From NCBI GenBank assembly GCA_001824295.1, contig MHWY01000001.1, positions 5,034-69,033 on the forward strand: a stretch of DNA of 64,000 nt. Reading direction: 5' to 3'. The DNA is from Candidatus Zambryskibacteria bacterium RIFOXYD1_FULL_40_13. GTDB lineage: Bacteria; Patescibacteriota; Minisyncoccia; Phycocordibacterales; DATDWN01. A program made the translations under genes and the position numbers. Under the pieces are notes generated by a model. That model was not told where the DNA came from, made no database searches, and saw only the letters and a list, made by a program, of their open reading frames with translations. This document shows, one piece after another, positions 688 to 54,069 of the stretch (position 1 is its first letter; every line of letters begins with the position of its first letter).

Positions 688-820
688 GAGAAGGTTTGTT
701 TGTTCACCTATACAATAAGATTTACTTGCAAAGTGTAGTAAATTGTGATTTAATATGTGTTGGCAAGTTCTGTTCAACCACCTCCCTAGCGCAGGGAGGA
801 CAATCACGGAGGTAGCTGGG

Positions 821-1138
821 ATGAGTTTGAGGAAAACGCTGGCTAGCATCACGCGTGAACCAGCCAAGGATGCGGGTGAACGTGGCAAGCAAATGGAGGA
901 ACTGTACGACGCCCTGAGGAGGAGGGCAATTGCAGTTCTGCCCGTTGGGGCTATCCCACCCAGAGAAGCGGGCATCTGCGATGATTGTGGGAATCCGATC
1001 TCGCCGGCAAGGCTCCAGGCCCTACCGGCGGGCGTGAACAGGTGCATAACCTGCGAGGAGAAGCGAGAGGCCGAAGAGGCAGGCCGGTCCGGCAGGCGCG
1101 GTGATTTCACAAGAACGCCCTGGGTGCCAGGGACATAG
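821..1138 (+). CDS. DksA/TraR-family C4 zinc-finger protein (GC-rich island 1)
   Basis: CDDCGNPISPARLQALPAGVNRCITCEE matches C-x2-C-G-x-I-x3-R-x3-P-x4-C-x2-C TraR/DksA finger; GGAGG SD 8 nt before ATG at 821; ORF track starts earlier at 755; strongly GC-rich versus neighbours. Confidence 0.55.
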   Translation: MSLRKTLASITREPAKDAGERGKQMEELYDALRRRAIAVLPVGAIPPREAGICDDCGNPISPARLQALPAGVNRCITCEEKREAEEAGRSGRRGDFTRTPWVPGT

Positions 1139-1242
1139 TGCGCTCGGGCATCCGACTGGTCCCAGCCCAGTCGGAAAGCCCACAGTCTCGTCGAAGTATC
1201 GGCGGGGCTTTTTTCATTACATTTATCAACAGCCATCCCCCT

Positions 1243-1270
1243 TTACAATATTTGTTTTATTTGTTATAAT
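1243..1270 (+). promoter_or_regulatory. consensus-like sigma70 promoter (TTTACA, 16-17 nt spacer, TATAAT)
   Basis: TTTACA at 1243-1248 and TATAAT at 1265-1270, followed by about 50 nt leader with GGAGAG SD before ATG 1324. Confidence 0.5.
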
Positions 1271-1323
1271 TAGGGTAGAAGTACCGAGCCGGGCGGAAAC
1301 CTGGCCAAGATTAGGAGAGCACC

Positions 1324-1530
1324 ATGCCCCACTCGCACATCAGAGCAATCGCGTCGAAGGAACTTGCTAGGGCGATCATCGCCCAGGCAGTGTCTGACGC
1401 AAGCAACCCCGCTGTGCCAAGTACCACACGGGAAGGTGCGATGTCCTTCCTGACGGACGCGGTGAAGTCGGGTCCAATTCTGGAGGACAACGATAGTGAG
1501 CCTCCGCCCGAAAGCAAGCTCTCAAAGTGA
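1324..1530 (+). CDS. hypothetical 68-aa protein (GC-rich island 1)
   Basis: GGAGAG SD 6 nt upstream; own promoter upstream and intrinsic terminator downstream; no recognisable domain. Confidence 0.45.
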   Translation: MPHSHIRAIASKELARAIIAQAVSDASNPAVPSTTREGAMSFLTDAVKSGPILEDNDSEPPPESKLSK

Positions 1531-1550
1531 CTCCTGAGCGCAACAACACT

Positions 1551-1596
1551 GACCCGTCCCCTTCTCTGGGGGCGGGCAGTTTTTTAAAAAATTATA
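1551..1596. terminator. GC-rich hairpin plus T-run (bidirectional terminator candidate)
   Basis: cccgtcccc ttctct gggggcggg then cagtttttt; also abuts the 3-prime end of the minus-strand gene at 1592. Confidence 0.55.
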
Positions 1597-5161: not shown

Positions 5162-5169
5162 AGCGAAAG

Positions 5170-5205
5170 GCCCTGGCGTGTATGCACGCCAGGGCCGGGT
5201 GGAAC
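5170..5205. terminator. GC-rich hairpin shared by convergent typA and island-2 gene
   Basis: ggccctggcgtg tatg cacgccagggcc perfect stem. Confidence 0.55.
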
Positions 5206-5215
5206 AAGAGAGGGA

Positions 5216-5623
5216 CTAGACAGCCTGACTGAGAGGCTGCTGCACGAACGACGAGAGAAGGGCGTCGCGCTCTTCCTGCGTCACGTCAACCGACATGCGA
5301 CCGTCACGAACACCGTCGAGCTTCGTGTAGCCCTGGGGTGTGATTCCGGCGAGAAGCTCCTTGAGGACCCTCCTCTTCGCCGGATCAACCTCGACCGCAC
5401 GGACGACCTGCTCAAGTGTCCGTCGGTCATACATCGAAACCTCTCCCCACTCGGAGTCGACGATAGGTGGCTTGTCGATGATCTCCCCAACAACATCCGG
5501 GTGAACACCCGCCCTTGCTGCAAAATCGACCCGAGTCTTGCCCTGACCCGCATAGCCCCAGAGCCTGACGTAAATGCCAAAACTCTGAGCCTGCATCTGT
5601 CGTCTAGTCTGCCTATCGAGCAT
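5216..5623 (-). CDS. hypothetical 135-aa protein (GC-rich island 2)
   Basis: GGGAGG SD 7 nt before ATG; GC-rich; no confident domain (possible HTH near N-terminus). Confidence 0.45.
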   Translation of the reverse strand: MLDRQTRRQMQAQSFGIYVRLWGYAGQGKTRVDFAARAGVHPDVVGEIIDKPPIVDSEWGEVSMYDRRTLEQVVRAVEVDPAKRRVLKELLAGITPQGYTKLDGVRDGRMSVDVTQEERDALLSSFVQQPLSQAV

Positions 5624-5715
5624 CGTCTATCCTCCCGCGTCCCGCGTTGATGTGACCGCACTGTCCCTCTGCTTCCATATATAATATAACCATAGTCTTA
5701 GCCATGGTGCAAATA

Positions 5716-8762: not shown

Positions 8763-8864
8763 ATTTACTTAAATCAGACAGTTTTTAGATAAAAAAAGAG
8801 GCTGTGGGGACCCCGCCGTCCCCACTCCTCCACCACTTGTCGCGATCACCCGCTGCTTGGCAGG

Positions 8865-8948
8865 TTACCGCCGACGCGCCCTTCCTTCTTCGAGATTCGC
8901 CACTTCGCGCTTCTTGTGTTTCTTCACCGCCGCACCGTTGAGTCTCAT
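8865..8948 (-). CDS. possible 27-aa basic peptide in GC-rich mini-island 3 (MRLNGAAVKKHKKREVANLEEGRARRR)
   Basis: AGGAG SD 7 nt before ATG; followed on minus strand by ggggac..gtcccc hairpin plus T-run at 8801-8830; alternative 67-aa frame 8785..8988 lacks SD and reads through the hairpin. Confidence 0.3.
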   Translation of the reverse strand: MRLNGAAVKKHKKREVANLEEGRARRR

Positions 8949-9051
8949 GGCACACTCCTGTGAAGGACTGGTCAACTCGTGACCACATCCTCTATAAGCA
9001 TAGCATATGCCCATTTGTCGTCAACAATAATTATCCACCAACGCCTACTAG

Positions 9052-13795: not shown

Positions 13796-13837
13796 ACATA
13801 TAGGATAGCACGAATTTTATGGTACGAAAAAAGTCTT

Positions 13838-13868
13838 GTGCGTGCTTGGGGGGCCACGATGCCCCCCA
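13838..13868 (-). terminator. GC-rich hairpin plus T-run
   Basis: cttggggggc cacgat gccccccacacaag, T-run on minus strand. Confidence 0.45.
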
Positions 13869-13877
13869 CACAAGACC

Positions 13878-14054
13878 TCAGAGATGCCCACGAAGGTAGA
13901 CTGCCTGCTCCTCTTCTGGTAGTGGAACCTTGTCAGCGTCCACTTCCCAGAGAAGACACCCGCCACATTTCTCACTTCGACAGATGTAGTAACTCTGTTG
14001 AACAATGTACACTTCACACCCACAAAAAGGACAGATTTTTTTGTCGTCTTCCAT
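13878..14054 (-). CDS. small zinc-ribbon protein (GC-rich island 4)
   Basis: CPFCGC ... CRSEKCGGC two CxxC pairs; GGGGGA SD-like before second ATG (MEDDKK...). Confidence 0.4.
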   Translation of the reverse strand: MEDDKKICPFCGCEVYIVQQSYYICRSEKCGGCLLWEVDADKVPLPEEEQAVYLRGHL

Positions 14055-14132
14055 GTGTCCCCCAAAAAACAAAAGTGACCCAACGGGTCACACCCACAAG
14101 ATAATAACACAATTCCTCTATACGAAAAACCC

Positions 14133-14169
14133 CGTGCGCTGAGGGACCCCACGTTGGGTCCCGCGCACG
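14133..14169. terminator. nested GC-rich hairpin between island-4 genes
   Basis: cgtgcgc tgag ggaccc cacgtt gggtcc cgcgcacg. Confidence 0.4.
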
Positions 14170-14178
14170 AGGCATGTA

Positions 14179-14802
14179 CTATCTGTTGGTACGCCTCAGA
14201 GAGACGAGGACGATAATTCCACACAGAATAGCACAGGAAAAGGGATACAACCTCTCTTCGACAGTCCAACCCTTACCACCTACCACTGACAACACATTGA
14301 CAAAGGTATAGCCAGTGTAGATGAGCCAGGGTGATTCCTCTGGCCTACGCCACGAATCCCGAAGTTGAGGGAAACCACCAAGGACAACGCCGGTTGTGGA
14401 TAGCACTGTGGCAAGCCAGGGGTTGTCGTATCCCCAAACGATGACACACCACGCGGTCAGACAAACCACAACCAGTATCGAAACTCTCGTTTCCACTCTG
14501 GTCCAGTTATAGTTGCCGGACTTCAGGATGCACGTAACGACAAGCGTACACCCAAAGACATAGGCAACTGGTAGCTGAAAATTTCCGCCCGCCACAAAGA
14601 TTGATGCACCCGCAAAAGCATCAAGTGACCCCCACAAGATAAAAGTCGCAAGATTCTGCGTTACTTTCCTCGTGAGAATCTGATACGAGAGAGGGAGGTA
14701 GAGGATGAGTGCTACGACGACGCTCACCTTCTGGTAAATATTCACTGTGACCCCTCCTGTTTGCTCATGGGCAACATACCCACCCACCTTAAAGATTAAC
14801 AT
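14179..14802 (-). CDS. hypothetical polytopic membrane protein (GC-rich island 4)
   Basis: about 6-7 predicted TM helices; GC-rich; alternative GTG start with AGGAGG SD about 18 codons downstream of the first ATG. Confidence 0.45.
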   Translation of the reverse strand: MLIFKVGGYVAHEQTGGVTVNIYQKVSVVVALILYLPLSYQILTRKVTQNLATFILWGSLDAFAGASIFVAGGNFQLPVAYVFGCTLVVTCILKSGNYNWTRVETRVSILVVVCLTAWCVIVWGYDNPWLATVLSTTGVVLGGFPQLRDSWRRPEESPWLIYTGYTFVNVLSVVGGKGWTVEERLYPFSCAILCGIIVLVSLRRTNR

Positions 14803-27056: not shown

Positions 27057-27070
27057 GACAGTCGCACACA

Positions 27071-29035: not shown

Positions 29036-29062
29036 GGCGGTCCCACGAAGGAACCGCCCGTC
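29036..29062 (-). terminator. GC-rich hairpin plus T-run after island-6 gene
   Basis: cgggcggtcc cacgaa ggaaccgcccg, T-rich on minus strand. Confidence 0.5.
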
Positions 29063-29083
29063 AAGGGAACCCGACAGAACAAT

Positions 29084-30040: not shown

Positions 30041-30209
30041 GACACACTCTCCTTGTAGCGTTTTGTTTTGAAGGAACACCGCTGTTGGGTGTGTTCGGGA
30101 TAAAACGCCTAAATATACCCTTTATTAGGACTATCTCGAGAAACACTCTTTTGATTTGTCCTAATAATTCTAAGACAACCATATCTAAATTAAAAAATCT
30201 GTCAAGTGT

Positions 30210-31889
30210 TTAGTTTGATAAAAACAATCTTCCTAAACGTAGTTTGAGATAACTAGTTTTCTTCTTTTGTTTGGTTAGAAAATTATAAACCGGAGAGAGG
30301 GTGGTAGTTTTACACTTTTTAAACGCAAGAAGGATGTCGTCTAGTTCACTCCTTTTTAACTCCCTCTTTAGATAAGTAACGTCCGGACATTTATTTTCAG
30401 CAATTAAATCTTCTATGTGTGAAACTATGGTTTCCTGCTTTACCCCCCTGGCTTCAGCAATATCCTTGAGTGGAACTTCTTCGGCCAGAAAACCCGCTGT
30501 GATTTCTTGTGATGATTTCTTAACCTCCCTATTTTGCTCTTTTTCTTTTCGTCGAATTTTTATTTTTTCTTCTGGCTCAATCTTTCGGAGCCACTCTTTT
30601 TGTTTTTCTAAAATTTCTTCCTTGGTCATTTCCTGCAATTTATCAGCTTCAGACTCAGACATTTTTTGAAATTCCAAATCTTTCTCCAAAACCTCTCCAT
30701 CTACTTCAAGCGACATCTCGTTGAAACCAAGAAGCTTCATACCATCGAGAGATCTGACGCGCGAAAGCGCCACATACCCCATCCCCCTTACAAAGGATTT
30801 TGACAAGTCTACTTCCATGGCATCTAGGGACATTCCCTGACTTTTGTGCACAGTGATGGCCCAGGCTAAACGAAGAGGTAGCTGGGATATTTCTGCCTTA
30901 ACCTTCCCTTCCTCCTCAATTTTCCACAACTGAGGGGTTACAGAAAACCTCATCCCATTATTTGTCTCTACGGTTGGGTCACCAAAATTATTGAAATCAA
31001 CCACAACACCCAAGGTACCGTTTACATATCCCCCTTCCATGTGGTTCTTGGTAAACATAACCCTTGCGCCGATTTTCAGTTCCAGTATTTCTGGAGAAAG
31101 ACAACTCTTTTTCAATGTCTCTACCAAACCGCGAGAGCCTCTGGAAGTCATATGATAACTTCTGGTGTCATTACTGATTAAGTCCAGGTGCCTTTTGTTT
31201 ACCACATCTACATCTATATTATGAGTATAAAGTCTGGTAGATTCTCTGGCTGACTGCGGATCTTTGTTAAAGCGACTTTTCAAAAGCTCTATTGTTTTGT
31301 CTGTAACTTTGTTTTGTCTAATCTGATTCAATATAGAAAGATATATATTGTCTCTCTGACGATGTTGCTCTGATATGTGACAAATAGTCAGTTTAGCGTC
31401 CTTCCAACACTCGGCCTTATAAGCAAACTCAGATTCAACTATTTCCCCACGAGTAATTGGTGGGAGCTGAAAAAAATCTCCAGATAGGACGACCTGCATT
31501 CCACCAAAAGGCTTCTCGTTGTGTTTCATCTGCCTGCATATCCACTCTATCAAATCCAGTCTAAAATGATGAAGCATTGATACTTCATCAATAATCAAAA
31601 CTTTGGTCCTATCAAATCTCTTATACAAATACGCTCTCTGCATCATTTCATCTATATCGTAGTCGGTCAGAATATCACGAATACCAATACCCGACCAAGA
31701 ATGTATCGTCTGTCCACCAAGGTGGGTCGCTGCTATACCGGTAGATGCGGTCACCGCCACATCCACTGCATGTGATTTTAAATATTGAATGTAGGAGTTA
31801 AGCACATGGGTTTTACCGCTCCCCGCAGGACCGGTCAGAAAAACATTTTTACCCATTTTTAATATATCCAGAGCTTCTTGTTGAGTCAC
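30210..31889 (-). CDS. SF1B helicase, Pif1/RecD family
   Basis: LTGPAGSGKTHVL Walker A, IIDEVSML Walker B, SGDFFQLPPI motif; C-terminal extension. Confidence 0.7.
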   Translation of the reverse strand: MTQQEALDILKMGKNVFLTGPAGSGKTHVLNSYIQYLKSHAVDVAVTASTGIAATHLGGQTIHSWSGIGIRDILTDYDIDEMMQRAYLYKRFDRTKVLIIDEVSMLHHFRLDLIEWICRQMKHNEKPFGGMQVVLSGDFFQLPPITRGEIVESEFAYKAECWKDAKLTICHISEQHRQRDNIYLSILNQIRQNKVTDKTIELLKSRFNKDPQSARESTRLYTHNIDVDVVNKRHLDLISNDTRSYHMTSRGSRGLVETLKKSCLSPEILELKIGARVMFTKNHMEGGYVNGTLGVVVDFNNFGDPTVETNNGMRFSVTPQLWKIEEEGKVKAEISQLPLRLAWAITVHKSQGMSLDAMEVDLSKSFVRGMGYVALSRVRSLDGMKLLGFNEMSLEVDGEVLEKDLEFQKMSESEADKLQEMTKEEILEKQKEWLRKIEPEEKIKIRRKEKEQNREVKKSSQEITAGFLAEEVPLKDIAEARGVKQETIVSHIEDLIAENKCPDVTYLKRELKRSELDDILLAFKKCKTTTLSPVYNFLTKQKKKTSYLKLRLGRLFLSN

Positions 31890-32580: not shown

Positions 32581-32688
32581 TTAGTATTTATAACACAAAT
32601 TTTGAATTCAGTACAGAAAAACACCCTCTTTCGAAGGGTGTTGCTTGTCCGCGACTGAATCCCCAAATGATCAGTCGCGGACAGCTTG

Positions 32689-32991
32689 TCACTCAGAAAC
32701 CACAATCTCCTTGGGTTTCATCAACGTCGGGCAGGTATCACCATCAAACCATACGTCGATGATGTTGGAAGTGTATCCCGGTGTCCCCGGCTCGACCAGA
32801 TTGACAATCGTACCAGACGCACCAGCGGGCACATTGGAGTGACGACCGTTTGATGCCACACGGGCACCAAGATAGAATACCTGCTCCGTGGATTGCGAGA
32901 TACCAACAATCCTCCCACTAACGGCTCGCCGCCCGACACTAAACCCTCCTGCCACTGTCACCACGAGGTCACCACATTTCGGGTGCTTCAT
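32689..32991 (-). CDS. hypothetical 100-aa protein (GC-rich island 7)
   Basis: GC-rich; TTGACA-type promoter upstream on minus strand; two hairpins downstream (32641-32680 perfect 12-13 bp stem). Confidence 0.4.
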   Translation of the reverse strand: MKHPKCGDLVVTVAGGFSVGRRAVSGRIVGISQSTEQVFYLGARVASNGRHSNVPAGASGTIVNLVEPGTPGYTSNIIDVWFDGDTCPTLMKPKEIVVSE

Positions 32992-33116
32992 AACCCCACC
33001 AACCCTTTCTGGTACCCAGGTACCAAGTTAACATTCCTACTTTGATAATACTGTATAATTTACTTATGTCAAGTATACGAAAAGGAGGGGCTACGTAACC
33101 CCCCCATGGACAGAGC

Positions 33117-33473
33117 TTAGGCAGCCGGTTTGTCATCACCGCCATGCCAGTGAGCTAAAATAGACCTCTTCAACTCCCTCTGCTGGCGAAACTGGTCAAT
33201 GCTGACCACCTTTTTCCTCATAATCCCCCGCCGGTGAATCGCTTTGTACGACCACCAAAATGGTAGCCACGCCCAAGCAACCACACCAACAAAAATAAGG
33301 ATGACCAATCCCGACACGAAGGTCTCTCGTTCAGAGTGGGTCAAACTCCGAACGAAGACGATTAGACCCCTGTACATCTGGGGTCCACTTCCAGCAATGA
33401 TGATGCCATAGATGATGGCCACCGCCACAACGACTGACAACGTAACTGCTCTCTTGATGGTGTGTGTTAACAT
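33117..33473 (-). CDS. hypothetical 2-TM membrane protein (GC-rich island 7)
   Basis: AGGAGGTG SD 3 nt before ATG (MLTHTIK...); two hydrophobic helices. Confidence 0.45.
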   Translation of the reverse strand: MLTHTIKRAVTLSVVVAVAIIYGIIIAGSGPQMYRGLIVFVRSLTHSERETFVSGLVILIFVGVVAWAWLPFWWSYKAIHRRGIMRKKVVSIDQFRQQRELKRSILAHWHGGDDKPAA

Positions 33474-34599: not shown

Positions 34600-34990
34600 C
34601 AAATGTGCCTTAGACAAAAAGGAATTCGCGACTTACGCCCGACCACGCGGACCGCACGAACCCCCTCTTCGCAAACGCCTGGTTCATCGGGCTACCTCCT
34701 CTTGGAGGCCGTTCCTCCTTCGCCTCTCTTCTTGAAGATACCTGGCTCTGTCGAGCCTGTTTTCGAGAACCCTGACCAGCTCCGGATTGCAGGTCAATGT
34801 CTTGAGGTAGCCAAGATGCATACCACTTTCGTCGAGGAGAAGCTGAATCTCCCCAACAGAGCTATGGGAGTCAAGCTCCCTTAGCTTTTGCGCATACTCA
34901 ACGAGTTCGCAAGGTAATTTGCGTGACAACACCTCACCCCTTTCAAGTGGGCCGGATTGGCCCGAGAACACCAAGCTTACCTAGCCAAAA
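34600..34990. other. GC-rich segment of unclear nature (island 8): ORFs only with TTG/GTG starts; possible ncRNA or degraded cassette
   Basis: ORF-track ORFs on both strands begin with non-ATG codons and lack a strong SD; GC clearly above flanks. Confidence 0.3.
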
Positions 34991-36966: not shown

Positions 36967-37018
36967 CCCTTTCTTTTTCTCCAAAAGTGTTATATAATAT
37001 AGAAGGAGGTGTCACGCC

Positions 37019-37447
37019 ATGGTAGCAAGAGTGTTACAGTGGCTTCAGGTGATGCCACTGAAAAAGAAACGGGAGAAAAAACTCCGCGGAATCGCTCTGG
37101 CGGTCAAAACCGCGGGGGACATCGCAGAAGCCGGAAGGCTTGATGTCGTAGAGAGAGACCACAATCCCCCGATGGGAGTCTGCGCCAGAATCCAAGTTCA
37201 TACTAGGTTCATGGTCCTTACTCGGGTGAAAGATGTGGAGCCACCGGCATACTTCCCAGAGTGGAAAGAATTCTGGTGGTGGATTAATCTCCGCCCACGG
37301 CACTTTCCGGCAACTCCAGAAGAGCCGTCGCCACATATTCCAGGGGCGCGTGAGATTCACTGGATTGAATTCCGGTTCGAGAGAAGAACAGATTGTCGGG
37401 AGCTCTCCGACCCCAGCACGCACCTCACGATTAAGTCGTGGGAATAA
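37019..37447 (+). CDS. hypothetical 142-aa protein (GC-rich island 9)
   Basis: GAAGGAGGTG SD 6 nt before ATG; terminator-like hairpin cccccaagc...gctttggggg + T after stop; a 160-aa antisense ORF overlaps. Confidence 0.45.
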   Translation: MVARVLQWLQVMPLKKKREKKLRGIALAVKTAGDIAEAGRLDVVERDHNPPMGVCARIQVHTRFMVLTRVKDVEPPAYFPEWKEFWWWINLRPRHFPATPEEPSPHIPGAREIHWIEFRFERRTDCRELSDPSTHLTIKSWE

Positions 37448-37698
37448 CCCCCAAGCAAGTCGTCTGCGTGACGGCAAGCTTTGGGGGTTTTCGTATGTAA
37501 AAATCTTACTGACCAAAAAACATGTTAGCTCTGAGGATTTTTGTTCGAGTTTGAAATGAGTGATTTATTAAAAGACGCTAAACTTCCAAATCTAGATGAA
37601 ATCCGACGTGAGAAATTAAAAAGGCGAAGAGCCTTACTTGTCGTAAGGTGATGAGCATTTTTAATTTGGGAACGAGGAGTTCGCCAGATTTGGAAGTT

Positions 37699-39966
37699 TT
37701 ACTTAGCTATGGTAACAGCTTCTTCAAAAGCAACAGACAGTAACTTTGATCCCCCGCCCATTCCCATAGTCACACCATACAAGACACCAGCCCGAGACAT
37801 TGTTTCGCGGTTATGAGTAATTAAAATAAGTTGAGAATATTTTGAAAGACTCTCTATCATGTCTCCATATTTTTTTGAATTGGCCTCATCAAGTGCCGCA
37901 TCTGTTTCATCTAGAATAATAAATGGTGGAGGGTTGACCTGAGAAATAGCGAAGAGGAGAGCAATGGAGGTAAGTGCCCTCTCTCCACCCGAAAGCATCA
38001 TAAGACCCTTTATTTTTTTCTTTGGGAGATTGACCTCAATATCGATTCCCTCCTCCTCCCCTGCTTCGTCAAGACTACGCAGAGCAAGCTCTTCTTCAGA
38101 AATTTCTCCTCCGTCTAATAATTCATCAACTTCTGACTTTTTGCGTTTTGGTGGAGTAACAATAGATAATCTTGCCTCGCCACCCCCAAACATAACAATA
38201 AAATACTCTCGAAACTGGATATTTATTTTTTCCACTCCATTTTTGAACTCAACAGAAAGTCTGGCATCTAGATCAGAAATGAGTTCAGTAAGGGAGGTTG
38301 CTGTTTTCTCCAAATCCGCAAGCTCCTTCTCTAGAAATGCATCCCTCTCGCTCGCTTCTGTGTATTCCTTGAGCACATCAGCCCCACCAGCTCCGCCCGA
38401 ATCTTCTAGTCTGATTTTTATTTTTTCTATTTTGCGTCTGCGTTCCTCTTGAATGTGCCTATCTTCATTAAAATCAAATGCCAGGTCTTGAAAATGTAAG
38501 ACATGCGTGCCAAGCATCATACCAAGTTCTGTTAGCTCCCTCTTGAAATCCTCTTGCACAAGATGCAGAGTCTCCTCCTCTGTTTTTAAACTACGTAACC
38601 TAGACCTCACTTCTTGAGATTCCGCCATAACACGAAAAACCGCTTTTTCTGCGTCTCGGTTTGAATCCTTTTCCTTCTCTATTTTATTTTGCAGTGCAGT
38701 ATATTGAAATGCTAACTGACTTTCTTTATCTTTTATTTCTTCAAGTGACTTTTCAATATTTTCCTTTGATTCTTTCAGGTTTTCAATATCTTTCTCCGCT
38801 TCAGTTAGAAGAGACATGTCTATCTTATCTTTGTTTTTATCAACAAAAGCAGATAAAATTTCTCCCACCTCATCCAAGACACGAAGAAGAGTATCAATAT
38901 CCCCGGCTTTCTTTGCCTCGATAATTTTGGCCTCAATCTGTGCAGATAAGCTCTCAACAGAAACAAGGGTTACTGTCTTGTGTTCCAGAGAGTGAGCAAC
39001 TTCTTCTTGTTTTTTGACCATCCTTATGAGAGAAGAGACTTCCCCATCAATTTTTCCAACCTCGCGAAACAAATTATCCTTCTCACTTCTCACTTTAAAA
39101 AGATTCTGCTCAAGCTCAATTAACTCCTCAGAGGTTGCGTCTCTATGCTTTGCTCCCTCAAGAACAGCCCGAGCCTCACTTAATTCGTTGTTTAGCTCTT
39201 TTTCTTTCTGAATCAAGGGCCACCTCTCTGTCTCAATCCTTGTGGTTGTAACCTTTATATACTCATCTTCTCTCTTGCAATACTCCAATGCTTCTTTCTG
39301 TAATTCTTCCCTAAGTTCAATGGATTTCTGCACCTTTTCAACCTGCTTCTTTAAAAACCTGATGTGTGGCATTATTTCTCGGCGAAGAGACTGAGTCTGA
39401 GCAATATTTTCTTGGGTTTTTGCTAGTTTCTTTTCACTCTCCTGCTTTTTGTATTGATACATCTTGAGGCCTAATGCATCCTCAATCATGGACTTTCTTT
39501 CCTTTATATTGGCGTTTAGTATTCTGTCCGCCTCACCTTGAGAAATAATATGGTGTCCCGATGAGCCAATATGAGCACTAGACAGTAGTTCTACTACATC
39601 CCTGAGGCGCACCTGTGAGCCATTTATTAGATATTCATTTACCGAGTCACGATGAACAACACGCTCAATAGTGACTGTGTCATAGTCTATTGGAAGAAAT
39701 TTACTACTGTTATCAAAAACAATTTTTACGCTTGCTCTGTTGGCTCTAGGTGTGTCTGGAGAACCGTTCCAGATAAGGTCTTCACCCTTTTTTCCTCTGA
39801 GAGACTTTATTGACTGCTCACCCAAAACAAAACTGAATGACTCAGCTACATTAGATTTTCCCGACCCATTTGGGCCCACAATTGCCGAAATTTTGGATGT
39901 GAACTGAAGCTCGCTCTTTTTGGCGAAACTTTTGAATCCCGTGAGTTCAATGCTCTTTAAATACAT
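37699..39966 (-). CDS. SMC-family ATPase (short, 755 aa)
   Basis: N-terminal Walker A GPNGSGKSN, coiled-coil middle, C-terminal signature LSGGERALTSIALLFAI and D-loop ILDETDAALD. Confidence 0.7.
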   Translation of the reverse strand: MYLKSIELTGFKSFAKKSELQFTSKISAIVGPNGSGKSNVAESFSFVLGEQSIKSLRGKKGEDLIWNGSPDTPRANRASVKIVFDNSSKFLPIDYDTVTIERVVHRDSVNEYLINGSQVRLRDVVELLSSAHIGSSGHHIISQGEADRILNANIKERKSMIEDALGLKMYQYKKQESEKKLAKTQENIAQTQSLRREIMPHIRFLKKQVEKVQKSIELREELQKEALEYCKREDEYIKVTTTRIETERWPLIQKEKELNNELSEARAVLEGAKHRDATSEELIELEQNLFKVRSEKDNLFREVGKIDGEVSSLIRMVKKQEEVAHSLEHKTVTLVSVESLSAQIEAKIIEAKKAGDIDTLLRVLDEVGEILSAFVDKNKDKIDMSLLTEAEKDIENLKESKENIEKSLEEIKDKESQLAFQYTALQNKIEKEKDSNRDAEKAVFRVMAESQEVRSRLRSLKTEEETLHLVQEDFKRELTELGMMLGTHVLHFQDLAFDFNEDRHIQEERRRKIEKIKIRLEDSGGAGGADVLKEYTEASERDAFLEKELADLEKTATSLTELISDLDARLSVEFKNGVEKINIQFREYFIVMFGGGEARLSIVTPPKRKKSEVDELLDGGEISEEELALRSLDEAGEEEGIDIEVNLPKKKIKGLMMLSGGERALTSIALLFAISQVNPPPFIILDETDAALDEANSKKYGDMIESLSKYSQLILITHNRETMSRAGVLYGVTMGMGGGSKLLSVAFEEAVTIAK

Positions 39967-40032: not shown

Positions 40033-40689
40033 TCATTGTGTGCTTACCACCCCCTTCTTGCCGTAGTTCTTGAACACCATCACGTGGAAAACAAGCTGGT
40101 TAAATTCCTCAACAAAAATCAGCTCGCCTTCCTGCATTTTTTTTGTCAGATACTCTCGTATCCAGTTGATGTCACCCTTCTTGGCGATATCAACCGTAGA
40201 GCCCGTTAGGTGAGATGACCTCCGAGGACCAGTCGTCTCCACTGCATTAGAGTTTATCTTTGCGATAACTCTTTGTCGTGGCACAGAACGAACTGCTGAA
40301 TTCACTTGGACTGGGTCGGTGAATCCAGTCTGAAACGCATGGGCAAGGCCCAAGTCGTCCAGAAAACTGCGAGTCCACGGGAGACAATAGCGGTACTGTG
40401 CTGGTAGTCGGTAGTCTACCCGCACAAACAGGTTGTGAGGAAGGGGTGCAAGGGTGCCGTCTTTGACAAGCCTTGCCAGCTGTTTGTCGTTCTTGATTTT
40501 GACCAACCCTTCTCTGTCTGCCTGTTCATTCTGCCTTATCGCAAGCTCTCTCCGCTCCTCTATCGAGAGCTTATGTATCTCTGTTTGTGGGGATAGTGGA
40601 TTTGGCATAGTCCAAACCACATCACCAAACCACAAAAGAGAAACTAGTAAACAAAACGTGGTCCTAGTCAGCATGTGCTGTCCTTTCAA
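40033..40689 (-). CDS. secreted peptidase M15-like protein (moderately GC-rich)
   Basis: N-terminal signal peptide; SSHLTGSTVDI resembles S-x-H-x2-G-x3-D zinc-binding motif of VanY/M15 peptidases. Confidence 0.45.
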   Translation of the reverse strand: MKGQHMLTRTTFCLLVSLLWFGDVVWTMPNPLSPQTEIHKLSIEERRELAIRQNEQADREGLVKIKNDKQLARLVKDGTLAPLPHNLFVRVDYRLPAQYRYCLPWTRSFLDDLGLAHAFQTGFTDPVQVNSAVRSVPRQRVIAKINSNAVETTGPRRSSHLTGSTVDIAKKGDINWIREYLTKKMQEGELIFVEEFNQLVFHVMVFKNYGKKGVVSTQ

Positions 40690-40790
40690 ATAACAGGATT
40701 ACTGGGGGCGTCTATTTTTATAGTAACACAGTTATTTTTTTTACAACAAAAAACCCGCATGAAGCAGTTCACTCTTTTTGTTTTTATGAT

Positions 40791-43412: not shown

Positions 43413-43558
43413 CCCATCATTTTATCATATACGAAAACCCGGTAGTGAATTTTAGCATTAGACTTTGTCCGCTCTGAAAGAGCAATGCTAAAATCTACTA
43501 CCGGGAGAAGAGCCGTCGGCGTGCACCTGGCACGCGGACAGCCCTTTAGAAAACAGCA

Positions 43559-43795
43559 TCAGATACCGACCCCTCTCTCACGGCCCGCCCTGATCCACCT
43601 AACAATGCGAGAGTTGTCCCCCCGCAATGTTTCAACTTCAGTCCGCAGGTCAGCGAGTTCGCGCACCGCGTCCGCGACACTGTGCCACAAGGCCTCCTCT
43701 GCTGAGCCGGGCTTTGCCCTCTGGCCCTCTGTCACGACAATCGCCTCCATCTCATCGATGGGAATCAGAAGCACTCTACCGCCAGTCTTCGACAT
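43559..43795 (-). CDS. hypothetical 78-aa protein (GC-rich island 10)
   Basis: AGGGAGGG SD 7 nt before internal ATG (MSKTGGRVLLIP...); ORF-track start is TTG. Confidence 0.4.
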   Translation of the reverse strand: MSKTGGRVLLIPIDEMEAIVVTEGQRAKPGSAEEALWHSVADAVRELADLRTEVETLRGDNSRIVRWIRAGRERGVGI

Positions 43796-43894
43796 GTCCA
43801 CTGCCCTCCCTATCCCCAAAATACCACCAAATCACCTCTATATCAACCCCCCCTCTCCACCACACTGATGACATGCTATAATACAGTCACAAAA

Positions 43895-47000: not shown

Positions 47001-47231
47001 GGTGGAATAATTGAAGATATAAGAAGTGTTGTGACAAAAAAGGGTGACAAAATGATTTTTCTCAAATTTGCAGATCTTACAGATTCCATAGAAGCGGTGG
47101 CTTTTCCGAAAGTTTTTGAGGAATTTCAAGATATATTAATCCCAGAAAGTTGCCTAGTCATTAAAGGAACATTTTCCACACGTAACGGCGGTAAATCTAT
47201 TTTGATTGATAAAGCTAAATTGTTGGAATAA
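44028..47231 (+). CDS. dnaE: DNA polymerase III alpha subunit
   Basis: N-terminal PHP domain HLHTHSHYSLL, polymerase core, C-terminal OB fold; start at ATG 44028 after the repeat. Confidence 0.9.
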   Translation: MSSKFIHLHTHSHYSLLNALPKINALVDEAIKNEMPAIALTDNCNLYGAIEFYKTCKKKEIKPIIGIDAYVAYRSRLDKTGIDKERYRLVLLAENEVGYKNLIQLVTLAHLEGFYYKPRIDREILEKYHEGLIAIAPSFSSDILKSLQLANDEQALERLNWYKRVFSGTTEKPNFFLEITHHPEIKGHEENMRKMVEFGKNTNTPIVASHDVYYINKEDRVARETLLAVQSQNDEKIEEGDDDFSFITPKQAEKYFKDLPEALENTTKIADRCNLEISIGKWFLPKYVVESGLSYDDELRRITEEGIKKRGLTKTPEIEERMEYELKIIRDKGYAPYFLVVSDLLHFAHENGILTTIRGSVAGSLVTYLSGITNVDPLLYKLPFERFLNPERPSAPDIDMDYADNRRDEMIDYARRKYGIDKVAQIGTFGTMAARGAVRDVTRALGFPYGVGDSIAKLIPMGAQGFPMTIERALKETPELKTMYDSETDVKKIIDMAKKIEGCARHISVHAAGVVISPTPLTDYVPLQYDTKGDNKIITQYDMNDVGEDGVGLLKFDFLGIRNLSILADAVKLTEKLEGIKLDIENVPVDDKKTFEMLARGETIGLFQLNGDGMTRSLMELKPTVIYDINVMVALYRPGPMDNIQEYMQRKHGKKPTTYIHPKMKNFLDRTFGVLVYQDDLMMTAIEVAGYTWGEVDKFRKAIGKKIREEMAKQHVKFVEGCQKHGGMTEKKAEELWNLFEPFQGYGFNKAHAASYGKVAYQTAYMKANFPAIYMSAVLTAESGDVEKIAEIIGECKRMGIAVLPPDVNESFEGFTVIKNQNPEEKDSIRFGLTTIKNFGEGIASSIIAERKAGGKFISLSDFLRRIKDKNLNKKSLEALIKTGAMDFFGDRGLLLSNLEKIIAFNKEERSKESDQDSLFGGIVEMSQANDILLEPAPLAIPSDKLLWEKELLGLYISGHPLESFKNKLETKATNIKKIKDTAKEREEVVVGGIIEDIRSVVTKKGDKMIFLKFADLTDSIEAVAFPKVFEEFQDILIPESCLVIKGTFSTRNGGKSILIDKAKLLE

Positions 47232-47239
47232 AAGTTGTG

Positions 47240-47480
47240 ATGGACTTTGATAGTTAAAATTGGGTTTGACAGCGAGAAATAGAAGTATATCATTGTACAC
47301 ATAGAGATTGTTGTGGTCACCAACCACAATCCCGCAAAGTGGGACCGTAAGGCTAATCTATAAAAAGAGTGTCCCTTGATTCATCAGGGGAAAACTGGGT
47401 GGAACCGCGAACAACTATTAAGTTGCCCGTCCTAGTAAGAATGCAAGTCATTGTATTTTTACTAGGGCGTTTTTTATTAT
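47240..47480 (+). promoter_or_regulatory. T-box riboswitch leader, threonine specifier
   Basis: specifier hairpin 47306-47331 with ACC in loop; T-box sequence ctGGGTGGaACCGCGaac at 47391-47411; terminator cctagtaa...ttactagg + TTTTTT at 47431-47476 just before thrS. Confidence 0.7.
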
Positions 47481-51786: not shown

Positions 51787-51890
51787 GATTTTCAGCTATT
51801 TATTTATGTTGTTTGGCTTATATTATAGCAAAAAGCCAAGCTAAAAGCTAGTGATTTTGAGTGGAAAAGATGGCTAACACATTGCCAGAT

Positions 51891-52451
51891 TTACCCCTTT
51901 TTCTCGAAATGTTGGTAATCAATTCTCCCACTTTCCGCTGTCCAATCCCCTCCCCAGTCCCAGCCGAGACTCTTCATGAGAACAACCAGTGGGTGGTCAG
52001 AAGTTAGTGTGCCTAGAATAGTTTGGTCGTAAACACCATCTACAGGTGCTTTAAAAATTTCCTTCAAATTTTCATCGAATCTCACATAAAGATTTTGCAC
52101 TGGGTTTATGTCAAAGGCCATACCGGTTGAGTGTTTTGATAATCTGTTTGTTCCTGCCACAAGTCTATAATTAAACCCGGAAGAATTATTATCCGCACAG
52201 GAAACATCATCATCCCATTTATATTTTTGGTCACCAATAGGTATTACCTTTTCAATTGGAAATTTTATGTGAAGTGCCAGCTTGAAAAAGCTCCTGACAT
52301 CCTCGGCTACAATTTTATTGACAACAATCTGCCCGGAGTGAATCTGACCGTCAAAACCAAAGTAATCTACAGAAAGAACTACCTGGGAATCTAAAACATT
52401 CTGTGGCGCCTGGCTATTTGGGTTTTGCATCAATATCTCCTTTTCTTCCAT
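51891..52451 (-). CDS. peptidase M15-like (VanY/D-Ala-D-Ala carboxypeptidase fold) protein
   Basis: SKHSTGMAFDI matches S-x-H-x2-G-x-A-x-D motif. Confidence 0.5.
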   Translation of the reverse strand: MEEKEILMQNPNSQAPQNVLDSQVVLSVDYFGFDGQIHSGQIVVNKIVAEDVRSFFKLALHIKFPIEKVIPIGDQKYKWDDDVSCADNNSSGFNYRLVAGTNRLSKHSTGMAFDINPVQNLYVRFDENLKEIFKAPVDGVYDQTILGTLTSDHPLVVLMKSLGWDWGGDWTAESGRIDYQHFEKKG

Positions 52452-52714
52452 ATAATTTAATTATACACAATACACTGGTTTGACAAGACCCGATAAATAA
52501 AATACAGTTCATAGTATGAATCCGCAAAAACCGATCGCTTCGAAAAACATTGGTGCAGTTCACTTTTTTTGGACTCTGTTTCCAGAGCCTATTTTTGCGT
52601 TTATGAAATAACTATCTAACACATCATAAACATAAAAATGGACTCTGGAAACGGAGTCCATTTTTTGTTACCACAGTTCTTTCACATCAACCAACAACAA
52701 ACAAGGAGACCACA

Positions 52715-53830
52715 ATGTTCAAAGTGAACCCGGCAAGCGTCAACGACCTCCTGCACCTCGTGGCAACGGGCGCTCCCGTGACCATGACCTCCCATCCTGG
52801 GAACGCATCACTCTACAAACTCTCCCTGTGGGCTTGTGGAATACCTGAGCACCTCTGGGATATCACCTGCTGTAAAGCAGACGCCAACAATTGGCCGATG
52901 TTCCGGCTGGTCGAGGGGCGTGCTGAACTCCTGATTGACGAAGGGTTGTATCAGAGAATCATGACTGAGACAAACCCAAGCAAAAGGTTCGTCACCGCCT
53001 ATCAAGAAACCACAAGCGGAGAACGCCTTGGACGCACCCATGTCAGAGCTTGTGAGGCTTGTTTTCCGAAAGCAATCTCGTCGTGCTCGCGCCTCATCCT
53101 TTCGGAAAGCAACAAAGCCAAGGAGATGTTTTTGTACTTGGCCGAAACCAAGAGGGACGAGGTATTCACACGCAGAATCGACCACGAGGGCGTGATGACG
53201 CCGGTCTGCTCGCACGGCCAGAGCTCGGTTGAGGTTGTCGAGTCATTTTTTAATGTTCTCGGCGAACTGGACCACCTGCTCTTCAGTGACGAGCAAATCA
53301 CCACATTGGGTGGAATCTGCTACGACGGCGTGATGGTTCCCCTCGCCACCATGCTCTGCCAGTATTGGCAGATGGGTCGAATCGACCGCTACGACATCTC
53401 TGGCCCCGACATGATTCACTACGCATCACAAAACGGGTTTCAGGGTGATATGTCACGCATGCTCGCCCATCTTCGGAAATGGAATCCGAAACTTGTTCCT
53501 CCCACCATTGTTACCCGGATGTTTCCCGGAACTGTGGCGAGAATCGGGCACATAAGGAATCATGTTTCCGAGGAAGTCATGACGAGAAAGGTACAAGCCC
53601 TTAGAAGTCCTCCAGCCGGGGAGTGGAAGAAGAGGCTCTGGGAAGTGGCCAAGGAAGATGAGGCCAGCTGGCCAATACAGGTCAAGCCAGCGCAGGACCA
53701 CTACTTCTCCCAACACGACTTGCTGGCCCTCGGGAAGGAGCTTTTGGTTGATGAGTACTGGAGAGAGATTCCGCTTGAGAATATGCGTGAAACTCTCGCC
53801 AGAGCCAACTCCCTACTTCGCTTGAGGTAG
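52715..53830 (+). CDS. hypothetical 371-aa protein (GC-rich island 11)
   Basis: AAGGAG SD 7 nt before ATG; terminator aaccccac...gtggggtt + T at 53843-53880; no confident domain. Confidence 0.5.
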   Translation: MFKVNPASVNDLLHLVATGAPVTMTSHPGNASLYKLSLWACGIPEHLWDITCCKADANNWPMFRLVEGRAELLIDEGLYQRIMTETNPSKRFVTAYQETTSGERLGRTHVRACEACFPKAISSCSRLILSESNKAKEMFLYLAETKRDEVFTRRIDHEGVMTPVCSHGQSSVEVVESFFNVLGELDHLLFSDEQITTLGGICYDGVMVPLATMLCQYWQMGRIDRYDISGPDMIHYASQNGFQGDMSRMLAHLRKWNPKLVPPTIVTRMFPGTVARIGHIRNHVSEEVMTRKVQALRSPPAGEWKKRLWEVAKEDEASWPIQVKPAQDHYFSQHDLLALGKELLVDEYWREIPLENMRETLARANSLLRLR

Positions 53831-54069
53831 TGCGGGCATGGCTTAACCCCACTGACTGAACATCGGTGGGGTTATTTTGTATATGTGTGGATGTTTATGT
53901 TATACTCTACTTATGTGCAAAAGCTTACAGCAAAACATAGCGTTCTTCTTTTTTGGCTATTTTCTCGAAGGCTGATGCTTGCGCTGTAGAAATCTCCAAA
54001 ATACAACCCAAACACCAGCCTTCGAGGCTGGTGTTTACTTTTTATCAAATTTTAACTAGACTAAACAAC

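Follow-up and report, generated by a model that had tools for sequence, protein, structure and literature searches.

By definition, phage morons are independent transcription units that have spread horizontally among phage genomes (PMC3594210). In Patescibacteria, islands have been predicted with IslandViewer, and the gene transfer detected into these bacteria comes mostly from other Patescibacteria (PMC12455944); the text of that study makes no mention of promoter- and terminator-bounded single-gene units, of GC-richness or of a contrast with the core in Shine-Dalgarno (SD) use. Here, we analyzed a 64,000-nucleotide stretch (the window) of the AT-rich chromosome of a tiny groundwater bacterium of the Parcubacteria (Paceibacteria), identified as Parcubacteria group bacterium GW2011_GWD1_40_9 or its population, in which an earlier note had described about a dozen abrupt GC-rich islands in an AT-rich, CPR-like core. 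Our data indicate that these islands are probably the variable, mostly imported gene complement of the chromosome, gained gene by gene.

Results

A two-state GC HMM run over the window recovered all 12 islands, mostly within ~50 bp of the coordinates first given for them (Table 1). The resulting GC profile separates island DNA (56% GC) from the core (38.4%), and by the HMM numbers even the shortest island lies more than 6 binomial standard deviations off core GC. For island 10, previously placed at 40033–40690, the GC-richest part was recovered and the rest of the span was not called. The HMM also flagged two segments absent from the earlier note, at 62.8 and 63.9 kb. Both are variable regions of a diversity-generating retroelement (DGR), not cassettes: they depart from the template repeat at template adenines alone, genes for bAvd and a reverse transcriptase lie beside the repeats, and they are unrelated to the 12 cassettes, whose coding strands are not adenine-depleted.

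Table 1. Features of the window. Daggers mark the window's strongest hairpin-plus-T-run terminators; percentages after HMM segments are GC contents.
Feature	Position	Strand	HMM segment	Contents and signals
Island 1	778–1579	+	778–1579 (58.5%)	Two independent transcription units
Island 1, unit 1	821–1138	+		DksA/TraR-type zinc finger, 105 aa; SD GGAGGT; terminator 1184–1209†
Island 1, unit 2	1324–1530	+		68-aa ORF; promoter 1242–1270 (TTTACA-17-TATAAT); SD AGGAG; terminator 1553–1576†
Island 2	5163–5676	−	5163–5676 (60%)	135-aa orphan gene 5216–5623; SD GGAGG; GC3 0.68; terminator 5196–5169†, 12-bp stem
Island 3	8798–9024	−	8798–8992 (61.5%)	~190-nt unit; promoter 9024–8997 (TTGACG-16-TATGCT); candidate 67-aa ORF 8785–8988; terminator 8825–8804†
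Island 4	13838–14802	−	13838–14788 (51%)	Two genes, each with its own hairpin terminator
Island 4, gene	14179–14802	−		207/188-aa protein, membrane-like by eye; SD AGGAGG before GTG at 14745
Island 4, gene	13878–14054	−		58-aa zinc-ribbon protein
Island 5	26816–27457	+	26816–27457 (53%)	Tandem 72-aa ORFs 26838–27056 and 27181–27399, both SD AGGAGG; terminators 27072–27096† and ~27427–27457
Island 6	29032–30205	−	29034–30099 (59%)	318-aa ParB/sulfiredoxin-fold gene 29084–30040; GC3 0.80; promoter 30205–30178; leader 30135–30041; SD AAGGAG; terminator 29062–29032†, 13-bp stem
Island 7	32620–33473	−	32622–33442 (52%)	Between khpA and trmD
Island 7, gene	33117–33473	−		118-aa protein, membrane-like by eye; SD AGGAGGTG; terminator 33105–33084†
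Island 7, gene	32689–32991	−		100-aa SH3-like protein; promoter 33072–33045 (TTGACA-16-TATTAT); terminator 32642–32620†
Island 8	34627–34986	−	34627–34986 (56%)	~82-aa ORF 34684–34932, upstream of the rpsP promoter
Island 9	37005–37496	+	37005–37487 (55%)	Extended −10 promoter; 142-aa ORF 37019–37447; SD AAGGAGGT; long hairpin terminator, tail TTTTCGTAT at 37488–37496
Island 10	40033–40674	−	40171–40570 (52.5%)	Weakest island; 213-aa DUF5715 protein
Island 11	43429–43880	−	43501–43867 (59%)	~78–80-aa ORF 43559–43795/43801; SD GGAGG; long hairpin terminator, tail TTTTCGTAT at 43437–43429
Island 12	52715–53874	+	52729–53871 (55%)	371-aa ligase-like gene 52715–53830; GC3 0.66; SD AAGGAG; terminator 53844–53874†
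Peptidase_M15_4 gene	51891–52451			AT-rich; divergently paired with the 371-aa gene
Core promoter examples	26758–26729; 25180–25151			Consensus
DGR variable region 1	62832–62957	+	62833–62957	C-terminus of 723-aa AAA_5 protein; 70% GC, 6% A
DGR variable region 2	63933–64000	+	63933–64000	C-terminus of paralogous 331-aa protein; cut by the window end

The abrupt composition switch at island borders is what would be expected if foreign GC-rich fragments had been spliced into an AT-rich contig during assembly or binning, an option that had been raised before and that we reject as practically untenable. The same arrangement, islands included, recurs at 99.9–100% identity over 15–21-kb overlaps in assemblies made independently with other samples and pipelines (ENA ANAN16-1 samples; JGI 3300025121; NCBI GCA_000995155.1 and GCA_003497585.1), island starts coincide with promoters and island ends exactly with terminators, and other Parcubacteria carry homologous islands. 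The islands are real in both their composition and their recurrence.

Island and core genes differ in SD use and leader structure. The anti-SD duplex energy is −7 kcal/mol or lower in 13 of 14 island genes (mean −10.7) and in only 3 of 42 core genes (mean −1.2), with random ATGs within islands reaching this level in only 19% of cases, a contrast that is in part circular for the small orphan ORFs, whose start codons were picked partly by their SD site. The homology-supported genes (318-aa, 371-aa, DksA and DUF5715) all have an SD site independent of start choice. A –10 box ending 4–13 nt upstream of the start codon is present in 16/42 core genes and 0/14 island genes; core genes lack SD sites and many look leaderless. 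Downstream of most island genes lies a strong hairpin terminator, the window's strongest hairpin-plus-T-run terminators sit at island 3′ ends, and several units have the tail TTTTCGTAT in common (6 copies vs 0.9 expected). The near-consensus promoter reported for island 1 is present, with 11/12 matches and an upstream TG. Consensus promoters are not specific to islands, core genes having examples too.

The DksA/TraR zinc finger described before is confirmed for island 1 (PF01258, E 8e-11), with none of 1.84 billion cluster representatives exceeding 50% identity to it, and the 135-aa protein of island 2 matches nothing in the databases but itself in the same population; both genes are orphans. 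Two island proteins are matched by phrog_54 (DksA-like) and phrog_5931, the zinc ribbon is found in island 4, two proteins look membrane-like, and the DUF5715 protein has, by eye, an M15-peptidase-like SxHxxGxAxD-type motif. The pair described as tandem paralogs in island 5 shares its length, near-identical terminators and a similar SD context, but BLASTP detects no protein similarity between the two ORFs. Structured non-coding RNA genes are typically GC-rich in AT-rich genomes, and island 3, with no convincing ORF between promoter and terminator and a mildly low folding energy (z −2.1), may hold either a small RNA or its 67-aa candidate. We give hardly any credence to the idea that the islands in general are such RNA genes: no tRNA and no Rfam match was found in any island, island 3 included, even below threshold at E up to 1, and most islands have ORFs with SD sites and coding-type GC1/GC2/GC3 periodicity, five of them with protein homologs.

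As the CPR-like label had implied, the core is a Parcubacteria/Paceibacteria housekeeping block with conserved gene order, and the core proteins flanking islands are listed in 58–83 blocks of the collection. The islands show presence/absence variation at its conserved junctions. Eight relatives (RNase R 69–80% identical) keep the order of 16 core genes and have none of the window's island genes, the DUF5715 gene being absent from the same junction in all eight. The c5–Pif1 junction spans 1206 bp in the window vs 7–199 bp in three relatives, the c9–RNase R junction 399 bp vs 0–35 bp in six, and the c15–c16 junction 567 bp vs 14–60 bp in three; the junction of island 8 measures 0–35 bp in six relatives. 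Conversely, the window has 3–43 bp where relatives have a GC-richer filling of 400–2000 bp, and the RpoB–BipA half of the window follows the same pattern. The relatives' fillings are their own, different GC-rich ORFs with strong SD sites, and islets of high GC were seen in 36 of the 59 related loci. At the TruB–BipA junction, island 2 is replaced in the closest relative (L111) by an unrelated filling of 460 bp and 57% GC, and at the RNase R–SMC junction relatives carry a different gene family, ~75 aa long, GC-rich and with a strong SD, in place of the window's 142-aa ORF.

Some of these genes recur at the same place. In L113 and L185 the RpoD–AddA junction, where island 4 lies in the window, contains distant homologs (27–28% identity) of the 207-aa protein, and the zinc ribbon of this island has counterparts in L111 and L113, judged by a common cysteine pattern and not by a computed alignment. 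The window's zinc-ribbon and 207-aa genes and several relatives' junction genes are orthologs kept at the same junction. The RNase R–SMC family, the RpoD–AddA zinc ribbon and 207-aa genes and the SMC–c12 membrane protein are GC-rich in several relatives. Since the relatives' core proteins are only 70–90% identical, the synonymous sites of same-junction genes should long since match host composition, and their persistent GC-richness needs either repeated replacement or a GC-maintaining force. It is one feature that gene-by-gene gain does not explain.

The 318-aa gene of island 6 occupies several different genomic positions. It lies in four unrelated neighborhoods in four Parcubacteria (the window, L084, L086 and L103), in each case within a 55–60% GC island of a ~40–43% GC genome and with the same layout of promoter, leader and terminator, the 5′ leader being conserved among these copies. 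Between the window and L084 the 318-aa protein is 86% identical and a LexA-like core protein only 59%, and the neighborhoods differ. The family fits the surrounding composition only in GC-rich phage contigs (12 IMG/VR contigs and a 110-kb phage-like contig, 45–64% GC); the leader is missing from the two phage-contig copies examined. A small membrane-protein family is mobile as well: in L005 and L006 it fills SMC–c12, but in L113 it is found at RpoD–AddA.

In contrast, the 371-aa gene of island 12, which encodes a class-I aminoacyl-tRNA-synthetase-like ligase, is conserved in the lineage, and its GC content is unusually high in the window. Its pairing with the Peptidase_M15_4 gene is kept in four distant genomes, and the two proteins diverge in step (64/66% and 49/59% identity). 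An SD site and a GC excess are found in three of the four, with varying strength: GC3 of the gene and of its neighbors is 0.66/0.39 in the window, 0.41/0.28 in L089 and 0.46/0.35 in L105, while the difference is negligible in L091 (0.27/0.24), where the gene is compositionally native.

These observations raise the possibility that the islands are resident lineage genes, fast-evolving and native to the clade, which are kept GC-rich in place by a local force, either GC-biased gene conversion at often-recombining loci or selection for stable GC-rich, SD-dependent mRNAs. GC content would then be a property of a gene class and not a mark of foreign origin. The 371-aa gene with its SD site and GC excess, the GC-richness of same-junction orthologs despite 24–31% protein identity, the fact that all 7 junction fillings above 250 bp in the 25–47 kb stretch are GC-rich, and the failure to find a donor genome whose expression signals match are consistent with this model. 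We nevertheless consider it unlikely, though its probability is not negligible, given the clean presence/absence at conserved junctions, the identity of the 318-aa protein in excess of the core at differing positions and its fit to phage contigs, and the two orphans. Moreover, we know of no bacterial process that lifts GC3 from ~0.35 to 0.66–0.80 within bounds set by transcription-unit edges.

No sequence is common to different islands of the window, direct and inverted repeats flanking the islands are at chance level, and no target-site duplication, common boundary repeat or recombinase was found at them, in agreement with the lack of integrase, transposase and flanking direct repeats reported before. 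An integron-like system, in which a recombinase encoded elsewhere recognizes the GC-rich end hairpins (which also serve as terminators) and moves single-gene cassettes, would account for the strong GC hairpin that closes every unit, the shared terminator tail and the reuse of identical junctions in different genomes. It could also draw on a 42-nt direct repeat that separates the 318-aa cassette from its neighbors in L086, beside tRNA genes, and on a large serine recombinase just beyond the window. However, the presence of that recombinase is accounted for by the 300-bp inverted repeat that it adjoins and that flanks the DGR module, and the hairpins vary in sequence and length and resemble ordinary intrinsic terminators. 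The dispersed cassettes, each with its own promoter, and the lack of any repeat in common also make such a system very unlikely, and the cryptic mobile cassette system envisaged earlier is not supported.

Discussion

We favor gene-by-gene horizontal gain, a model in which small foreign or exchanged genes would arrive singly or in pairs between genes of the highly syntenic AT-rich core, from a source pool of higher GC than the host. Each is a complete unit of sigma-70 promoter, leader with a strong SD site, ORF and GC-rich hairpin terminator, and is thus expressible at any landing site with no read-through into neighbors. At least one family, which fits the local composition in GC-rich phage contigs, appears to have spread among Parcubacteria as a promoter–leader–gene–terminator unit. 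As no duplications, repeats or recombinase were found at the islands, we can only infer how they insert, possibly by recombination, either illegitimate or aided by homology, once DNA has been taken up or a phage encountered, with no dedicated recombinase. The strong SD site could act as a filter on imports: if the core initiates on AT-rich, unstructured starts that are SD-less or leaderless, only GC-rich imports with their own strong SD would be translated and kept. Our search for donors found no sampled genome that pairs GC-rich composition with strong SD use, and in a crude scan, strong SD sites were hardly enriched, if at all, in GC-rich Paceibacteria and two phage contigs. The many independent foreign acquisitions proposed in the earlier note remain a good description of most islands, which relatives lack and which include the 318-aa gene, but not of the 371-aa lineage gene or of the orthologs kept at the same junction.

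Among known systems, integron cassettes resemble the islands in being small, mostly single-gene, of varied and often unknown function and closed by a hairpin-forming end, but the islands have no attC family, tandem array or adjoining integrase, and each unit has its own promoter. The likeness to phage morons goes further: a lone small gene that brings its own promoter and terminator and separates two genes which are neighbors in related genomes, with a base composition unlike its neighbors, often orphan or accessory content such as a DksA/TraR-like or phage-family protein, and no associated recombinase or flanking repeats (PMC3594210). Unlike morons, the islands lie in a cellular chromosome, among housekeeping genes such as rpoD, dnaG, smc, rnr and trmD and outside any phage or prophage, their GC content exceeds that of the DNA around them, and they differ from host genes in translation initiation, with a strong SD vs none or a leaderless start. 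The singly transferred genes and small islets of Patescibacteria are alike in that transfer is mostly within Patescibacteria and the cargo consists largely of hypothetical proteins, and the share of acquired DNA is comparable, at ~12% of the window here and up to 13% of genome length there (PMC12455944).

Results

The earlier note had claimed, from the sequence alone, that about a dozen GC-rich, self-contained cassettes interrupt a CPR-like core, and our analysis confirms this core observation overall while supporting its interpretation only in part. A 200-bp GC profile combined with a two-state HMM over the window returned 12 sharply bounded segments of 195-1143 bp with 51-61.5% GC against a 38.4% GC background. 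These islands occupy about 12% of the window, have a mean GC of 56% (core, 38%) and lie at a dinucleotide distance of 0.109 from the core. Most of the coordinates first proposed were matched by HMM segments to within about 50 bp; for island 10 the HMM recovered the GC-richest part but not the remainder of the proposed stretch. A further two short stretches of high GC, at 62.8 and 63.9 kb, are DGR variable regions. The long ORFs of the core encode housekeeping proteins (BipA, HisRS, an AddA-type helicase-nuclease, RpoD, DnaG, RpoC, RpoB, Pif1 helicase, RNase R, SMC, DnaE, ThrRS, GyrB and PheS), to which the annotation of identical public copies adds S16, KhpA, TrmD, RNase III, NusB, L32 and RNase HII. 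The window sequence is identical to contig LBWZ01000003.1 of NCBI GCA_000995155.1, whose proteins are named as Parcubacteria group bacterium GW2011_GWD1_40_9, and the description of the core as CPR-like is correct. Island 7, with two genes, sits between khpA and trmD, within the usually conserved rpsP-khpA/rimM-trmD cluster.

Such abrupt boundaries could also have been produced by chimeric assembly, as the earlier note allowed. We reject this reading because many independent assemblies (ENA, from different Rifle samples; JGI 3300025121; NCBI GCA_003497585.1) place RpoD and KhpA beside the same genes as the window does, those of the islands among them, and match the window across the islands at 99.9-100% identity. 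Strain-level empty sites were absent among the public copies of this population, all of them at least 99.9% identical, so the exact insertion borders of the islands are not definable from these copies. RNA genes are rejected as an explanation of the islands, as the window contains no tRNA and no island matches an Rfam family, even at E values up to 1.

Coordinates of the features discussed in the text (window positions, or positions in the related locus named)
Feature	Sequence	Position	Remark
Promoter quoted in the earlier note	window	1242-1270	
Core starts with a TATAAT-like box 4-13 nt upstream and no SD (examples)	window	8044; 30210-31889; 37699-39966; 51891-52451; 57227-57649	
Island terminators with a tail after the hairpin	window	14120; 33075; 37488; 43429	also 13820-13830
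Leader of the 318-aa cassette	window	30041-30135	minus strand
Leader of the 318-aa cassette	L103	9903-10000	
Leader of the 318-aa cassette	L084		
Leader of the 318-aa cassette	L086		
42-nt direct repeat	L086	9759-9800; 11035-11076; 12094-12135	
Island 7	window	32620-33473	
Island 10, as first proposed	window	40033-40690	
Island 10, part recovered by HMM	window	40171-40570	
T-box leader match (RF00230)	window	47228-47437	under gathering score
300-bp inverted repeat	window	57730-58029	
300-bp inverted repeat	L109	6942-7241; 16092-16391	
Variable region, C-terminus of 723-aa AAA_5 protein	window	62832-62957	
Variable region, C-terminus of 331-aa paralog	window	63933-64000	
Large serine recombinase	L109	5125-6720	
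DGR template repeat	L109	13598-13715	
bAvd	L109	13751-14137	
Reverse transcriptase (RVT_1)	L109	14138-15163	

The strongest intrinsic-terminator-like hairpins of the window are found at the 3' ends of island genes, and predicted promoter and terminator sites bracket these genes, the arrangement of a moron-type independent transcription unit. The terminators, the SD sites and the promoter quoted in the earlier note are present, but promoters do not distinguish islands, because consensus promoters precede core genes as well. It is translation initiation, rather than promoters, that sets islands apart from the core. Measured as the best duplex of the 20 nt upstream of the start codon with the anti-Shine-Dalgarno sequence, SD energy averages -10.7 kcal/mol for 14 island genes (-7 or lower in 13) and -1.2 kcal/mol for 42 core genes (-7 or lower in 3). 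Just 19% of random ATGs within islands reach -7 or lower, so GC-richness alone does not explain this contrast. Conversely, a -10-like hexamer ending 4-13 nt before the start codon, which is the geometry of leaderless mRNAs, precedes 16 of the 42 core genes and none of the island genes. The occurrence of TATAAT-like boxes close to SD-less core starts suggests that leaderless mRNAs may be widespread in this organism, and the SD and leader contrasts together indicate that the genome holds two sets of expression signals. The sole motif common to the islands is a terminator tail, TTTTCGTAT, present in 6 copies in the window against 0.9 expected, 4 of them at island terminators; at the terminators given in the table, either TTTTCGTAT or TTTTCGTAC follows the hairpin. 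A pair of island genes had been described as tandem paralogs, a claim that fails at the protein level: BLASTP gave no alignment, and the likeness is confined to the terminators and SD context. Upstream of the core gene for threonyl-tRNA synthetase there is a match over the full length of the T-box leader model RF00230 (E 0.018; 28.7 bits, under the gathering score of 93).

Relatives collected by an RNase R scan (one genome per species) and an RpoD metagenome scan have core proteins about 60-90% identical to those of the window and the same core gene order. Except for weak homologs between RpoD and AddA, the island genes of the window were not found at the corresponding junctions of these relatives. 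The junction between core gene c5 and Pif1 measures 1206 bp in the window and 7, 93 and 199 bp in three relatives, that between S16 and RNase R 399 bp against 0-35 bp in six, and that between RNase HII and DnaE 567 bp against 14-60 bp in three. As expected of morons, the islands sit between genes that are adjacent in related genomes (junctions of 0-199 bp there). The reverse also occurs: where the window has a junction of 3-43 bp, one or another of the relatives carries 400-2000 bp of GC-richer DNA. At these same slots relatives carry GC-rich islets of their own, with small ORFs, strong SDs and high GC3. In L111, the closest relative (RpoD 89% identical), the slot between TruB and BipA, which holds a 135-aa orphan in the window, is filled by an unrelated 460 bp of 57% GC, and the slot between RpoD and AddA by 2.7 kb of 52% GC. 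A small membrane-protein family occupies the slot between SMC and core gene c12 in two genomes and the RpoD-AddA slot in a third. At least one GC-rich islet is present in 36 of 59 related loci (1.08 Mb), with a density that peaks in the window and its close relatives. One relative (L118, Ga0172380_10005400; RpoD 80% identical) has a genome segment of 57% GC, and genomic GC therefore spans about 20 points within the clade.

The 318-aa gene of island 6 belongs to a family found at several positions. Its protein has 133 homologs, the named ones all from Parcubacteria, and in three other Parcubacteria genomes the gene lies in three different neighbourhoods, each copy being an island of about 1 kb with 55-60% GC in a genome of about 40-43% GC. 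Every copy is preceded by the same TTGACA promoter, a conserved, hairpin-containing leader of about 60 nt and an SD, and followed by a hairpin terminator. Between the window and L084 the 318-aa protein is 86% identical, against 59% for a LexA-like core protein of the same two genomes. The absence of island genes from the junctions of relatives, together with the several positions of this family, supports the earlier reading of independent acquisition for most islands. In four genomes the 5' leader is kept as a variable hairpin enclosed by an invariant outer stem (GCGUUUU/AAAACGC) and may be a cis-regulatory RNA, four sequences being too few for covariation. Remote homologs, 31-49% identical, are present in 12 IMG/VR contigs and one 110-kb phage-like contig; in these the gene does not differ in GC from its flanks (45-64%), and both phage copies that were examined lack the leader and are embedded in dense gene arrays. 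The protein matches phage family phrog_5931 and contains an invariant NGQH motif, but gave no match in Pfam, among PDB sequences or, by tblastn, among GenBank phages. Its AlphaFold2 model (pLDDT 89) predicts a ParB/sulfiredoxin-like N-terminal domain, and the top Foldseek matches are all sulfiredoxin, ParB or Noc, although weak (E 0.02-0.1; target TM-score at most 0.51). In the Vogelbacteria-like genome L086, copies of a 42-nt direct repeat separate the 318-aa cassette and downstream small genes on the same strand, and tRNA genes adjoin; the region resembles either a cassette array or an island linked to the tRNA genes.

Some islands are not simple imports, namely that of the 371-aa gene and those with junction genes common to relatives. 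The 371-aa gene (island 12) belongs to a Paceibacteria-wide family and stands divergently beside a Peptidase_M15_4 gene in 4 of 4 genomes examined, the two diverging in step. Its GC3 is 0.66 in the window, where that of its partner is 0.39, an excess that is small or absent in the other genomes (0.41 vs 0.28, 0.46 vs 0.35 and 0.27 vs 0.24). The protein is probably an ATP-dependent amino-acid ligase working with the cell-wall peptidase, and may be one of the class I aminoacyl-tRNA-synthetase-like ligases, to which BshC and MshC belong; an IMG/VR scan returned no relatives of the family. Between RNase R and SMC, four related loci (L005, L006, L007 and L012) carry a homologous gene of about 75 aa whose proteins are only 24-31% identical; the three copies for which GC3 was measured (L005, L007 and L012) have values of 0.58-0.67. 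Homologs of the 207-aa membrane protein of island 4 occupy the RpoD-AddA slot of relatives at 27-28% identity, as do counterparts of its 58-aa zinc ribbon, judged by shared cysteine pattern rather than computed alignment. With core proteins of those genomes just 70-90% identical, synonymous sites are saturated, and by the standard amelioration argument a gene present since their common ancestor would be expected to have taken on host composition. Its lasting GC-richness would therefore need selection, GC-biased conversion or a GC-rich pool from which the gene is replaced time and again, three causes that our data do not tell apart.

The DksA/TraR protein of island 1 scores above the gathering cut-off of PF01258 (42.2 vs 24.9 bits) and matches phrog_54 (E 1e-12), but misses all NCBIfam equivalog cut-offs and is thus a superfamily member only; among 1.84 billion cluster representatives it has no relative above 50% identity. 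The 135-aa protein of island 2 matched nothing but itself among 5.8 billion proteins. For the zinc ribbon, a weak Lar-like match under the cut-off (E 0.028) is a hint only. PADLOC defence models matched none of the 10 island proteins scanned, and PDB sequence searches with both large island proteins were negative.

The variable regions at the end of the window belong to a complete DGR: in the alignment they depart from the template repeat only where it has an adenine, and the template repeat, bAvd and reverse transcriptase lie together just past the window end, in L109. Adenine-specific mutagenesis of this type is rejected as the source of island GC, the coding-strand A/T ratio of islands being about 1.07, compared with 6% A in a true variable region. 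A 300-bp inverted repeat flanks the VWA/AAA_5/DGR module of about 9 kb, which a large serine recombinase adjoins and which has the opposite orientation in two ENA scaffolds; it is either a true invertible segment or a repeat-induced assembly ambiguity.

Discussion

CPR/Patescibacteria genomes are tiny, streamlined and highly syntenic, and little is understood of the ways in which they acquire new functions. The reading best supported by our data is that whole transcription units were gained horizontally, gene by gene, at junctions between genes; they are moron-like but lie in a cellular chromosome. We observed directly the distinct composition, the reproducibility across assemblies, the differing expression signals, the presence and absence across relatives and the occurrence of one family at several positions. 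Insertion could have followed DNA uptake or contact with phages and proceeded by recombination, either illegitimate or facilitated by homology; a strong SD might be what a structured, GC-rich mRNA requires to be translated in a host whose other messages are leaderless or start in AT-rich sequence. Gene-by-gene gain agrees with the finding that Patescibacteria exchange genes mainly among themselves (PMC12455944). GC-rich Paceibacteria are not obvious donors: at a dinucleotide distance of 0.14-0.19, they do not resemble the islands more than the host core does. With distances of 0.07-0.09, some phage contigs come slightly nearer, a difference that is not decisive for 8 kb of sequence. A crude and noisy scan of GC-rich relatives and two phage contigs found little or no SD enrichment.

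A further reading would place two expression systems in one chromosome, an AT-rich, SD-less or leaderless core and a set of fast-evolving small genes at fixed intergenic slots that are actively kept GC-rich and SD-dependent. The islands would then be a maintained compositional and translational class, beyond un-ameliorated imports, perhaps through GC-biased conversion when lineages often exchange DNA, through selection acting on mRNA structure or through a hairpin-directed cassette mechanism yet to be discovered. We regard this as unlikely.

Plug-and-play units of a single gene make up about 12% of this 64-kb stretch of housekeeping genes and are recognisable from sequence alone by GC-richness, a strong SD and a strong terminator, the first two of which host genes do not have. 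With these three signals the flexible genes of such genomes can be marked in a simple way; small orphan proteins account for much of this pool. The signals also raise the question of whether the core initiates translation on leaderless or SD-less messages while imports depend on an SD, and the GC-rich genes kept at one junction pose a puzzle of compositional drift that bears on GC-biased conversion or mRNA selection. If the islands reflect plain horizontal transfer into an AT-rich recipient, they are an unusually clean example of a known process. Gain of moron-like units is itself such a process; two features of the islands appear undescribed, as limited literature searches turned up no earlier account of either the linkage between contrasting composition and contrasting translation initiation or the lasting GC-richness of position-conserved genes.

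Among known systems, genomic islands, prophages and ICEs differ from the islands described here in that the window lacks tRNAs and the islands lack flanking repeats; the sole recombinase found lies outside the window, beside the DGR module. A dedicated cassette system, another proposal of the earlier note, is not supported: blastn and tblastx found no repeats or families common to islands within the window, direct and inverted repeats at island borders are of chance length only, and the islands show no recombination-site signature. Unlike integron cassettes, they share no attC-type site and are dispersed over 53 kb, each with its own promoter, rather than forming a promoterless tandem array beside intI, and no integrase was matched by Pfam among the ORFs scanned (20 core ORFs and the island genes). 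The islands would function like phage morons, which are independent transcription units (PMC3594210). The islands differ from them in lying outside any phage or prophage, with no phage structural genes nearby in the window and with rpoB/C, rpoD, dnaG, smc, rnr, trmD and aminoacyl-tRNA synthetase genes as flanks. They resemble morons in having a predicted promoter and terminator of their own, in standing between genes that are neighbours in relatives and in a composition unlike that of their flanks.
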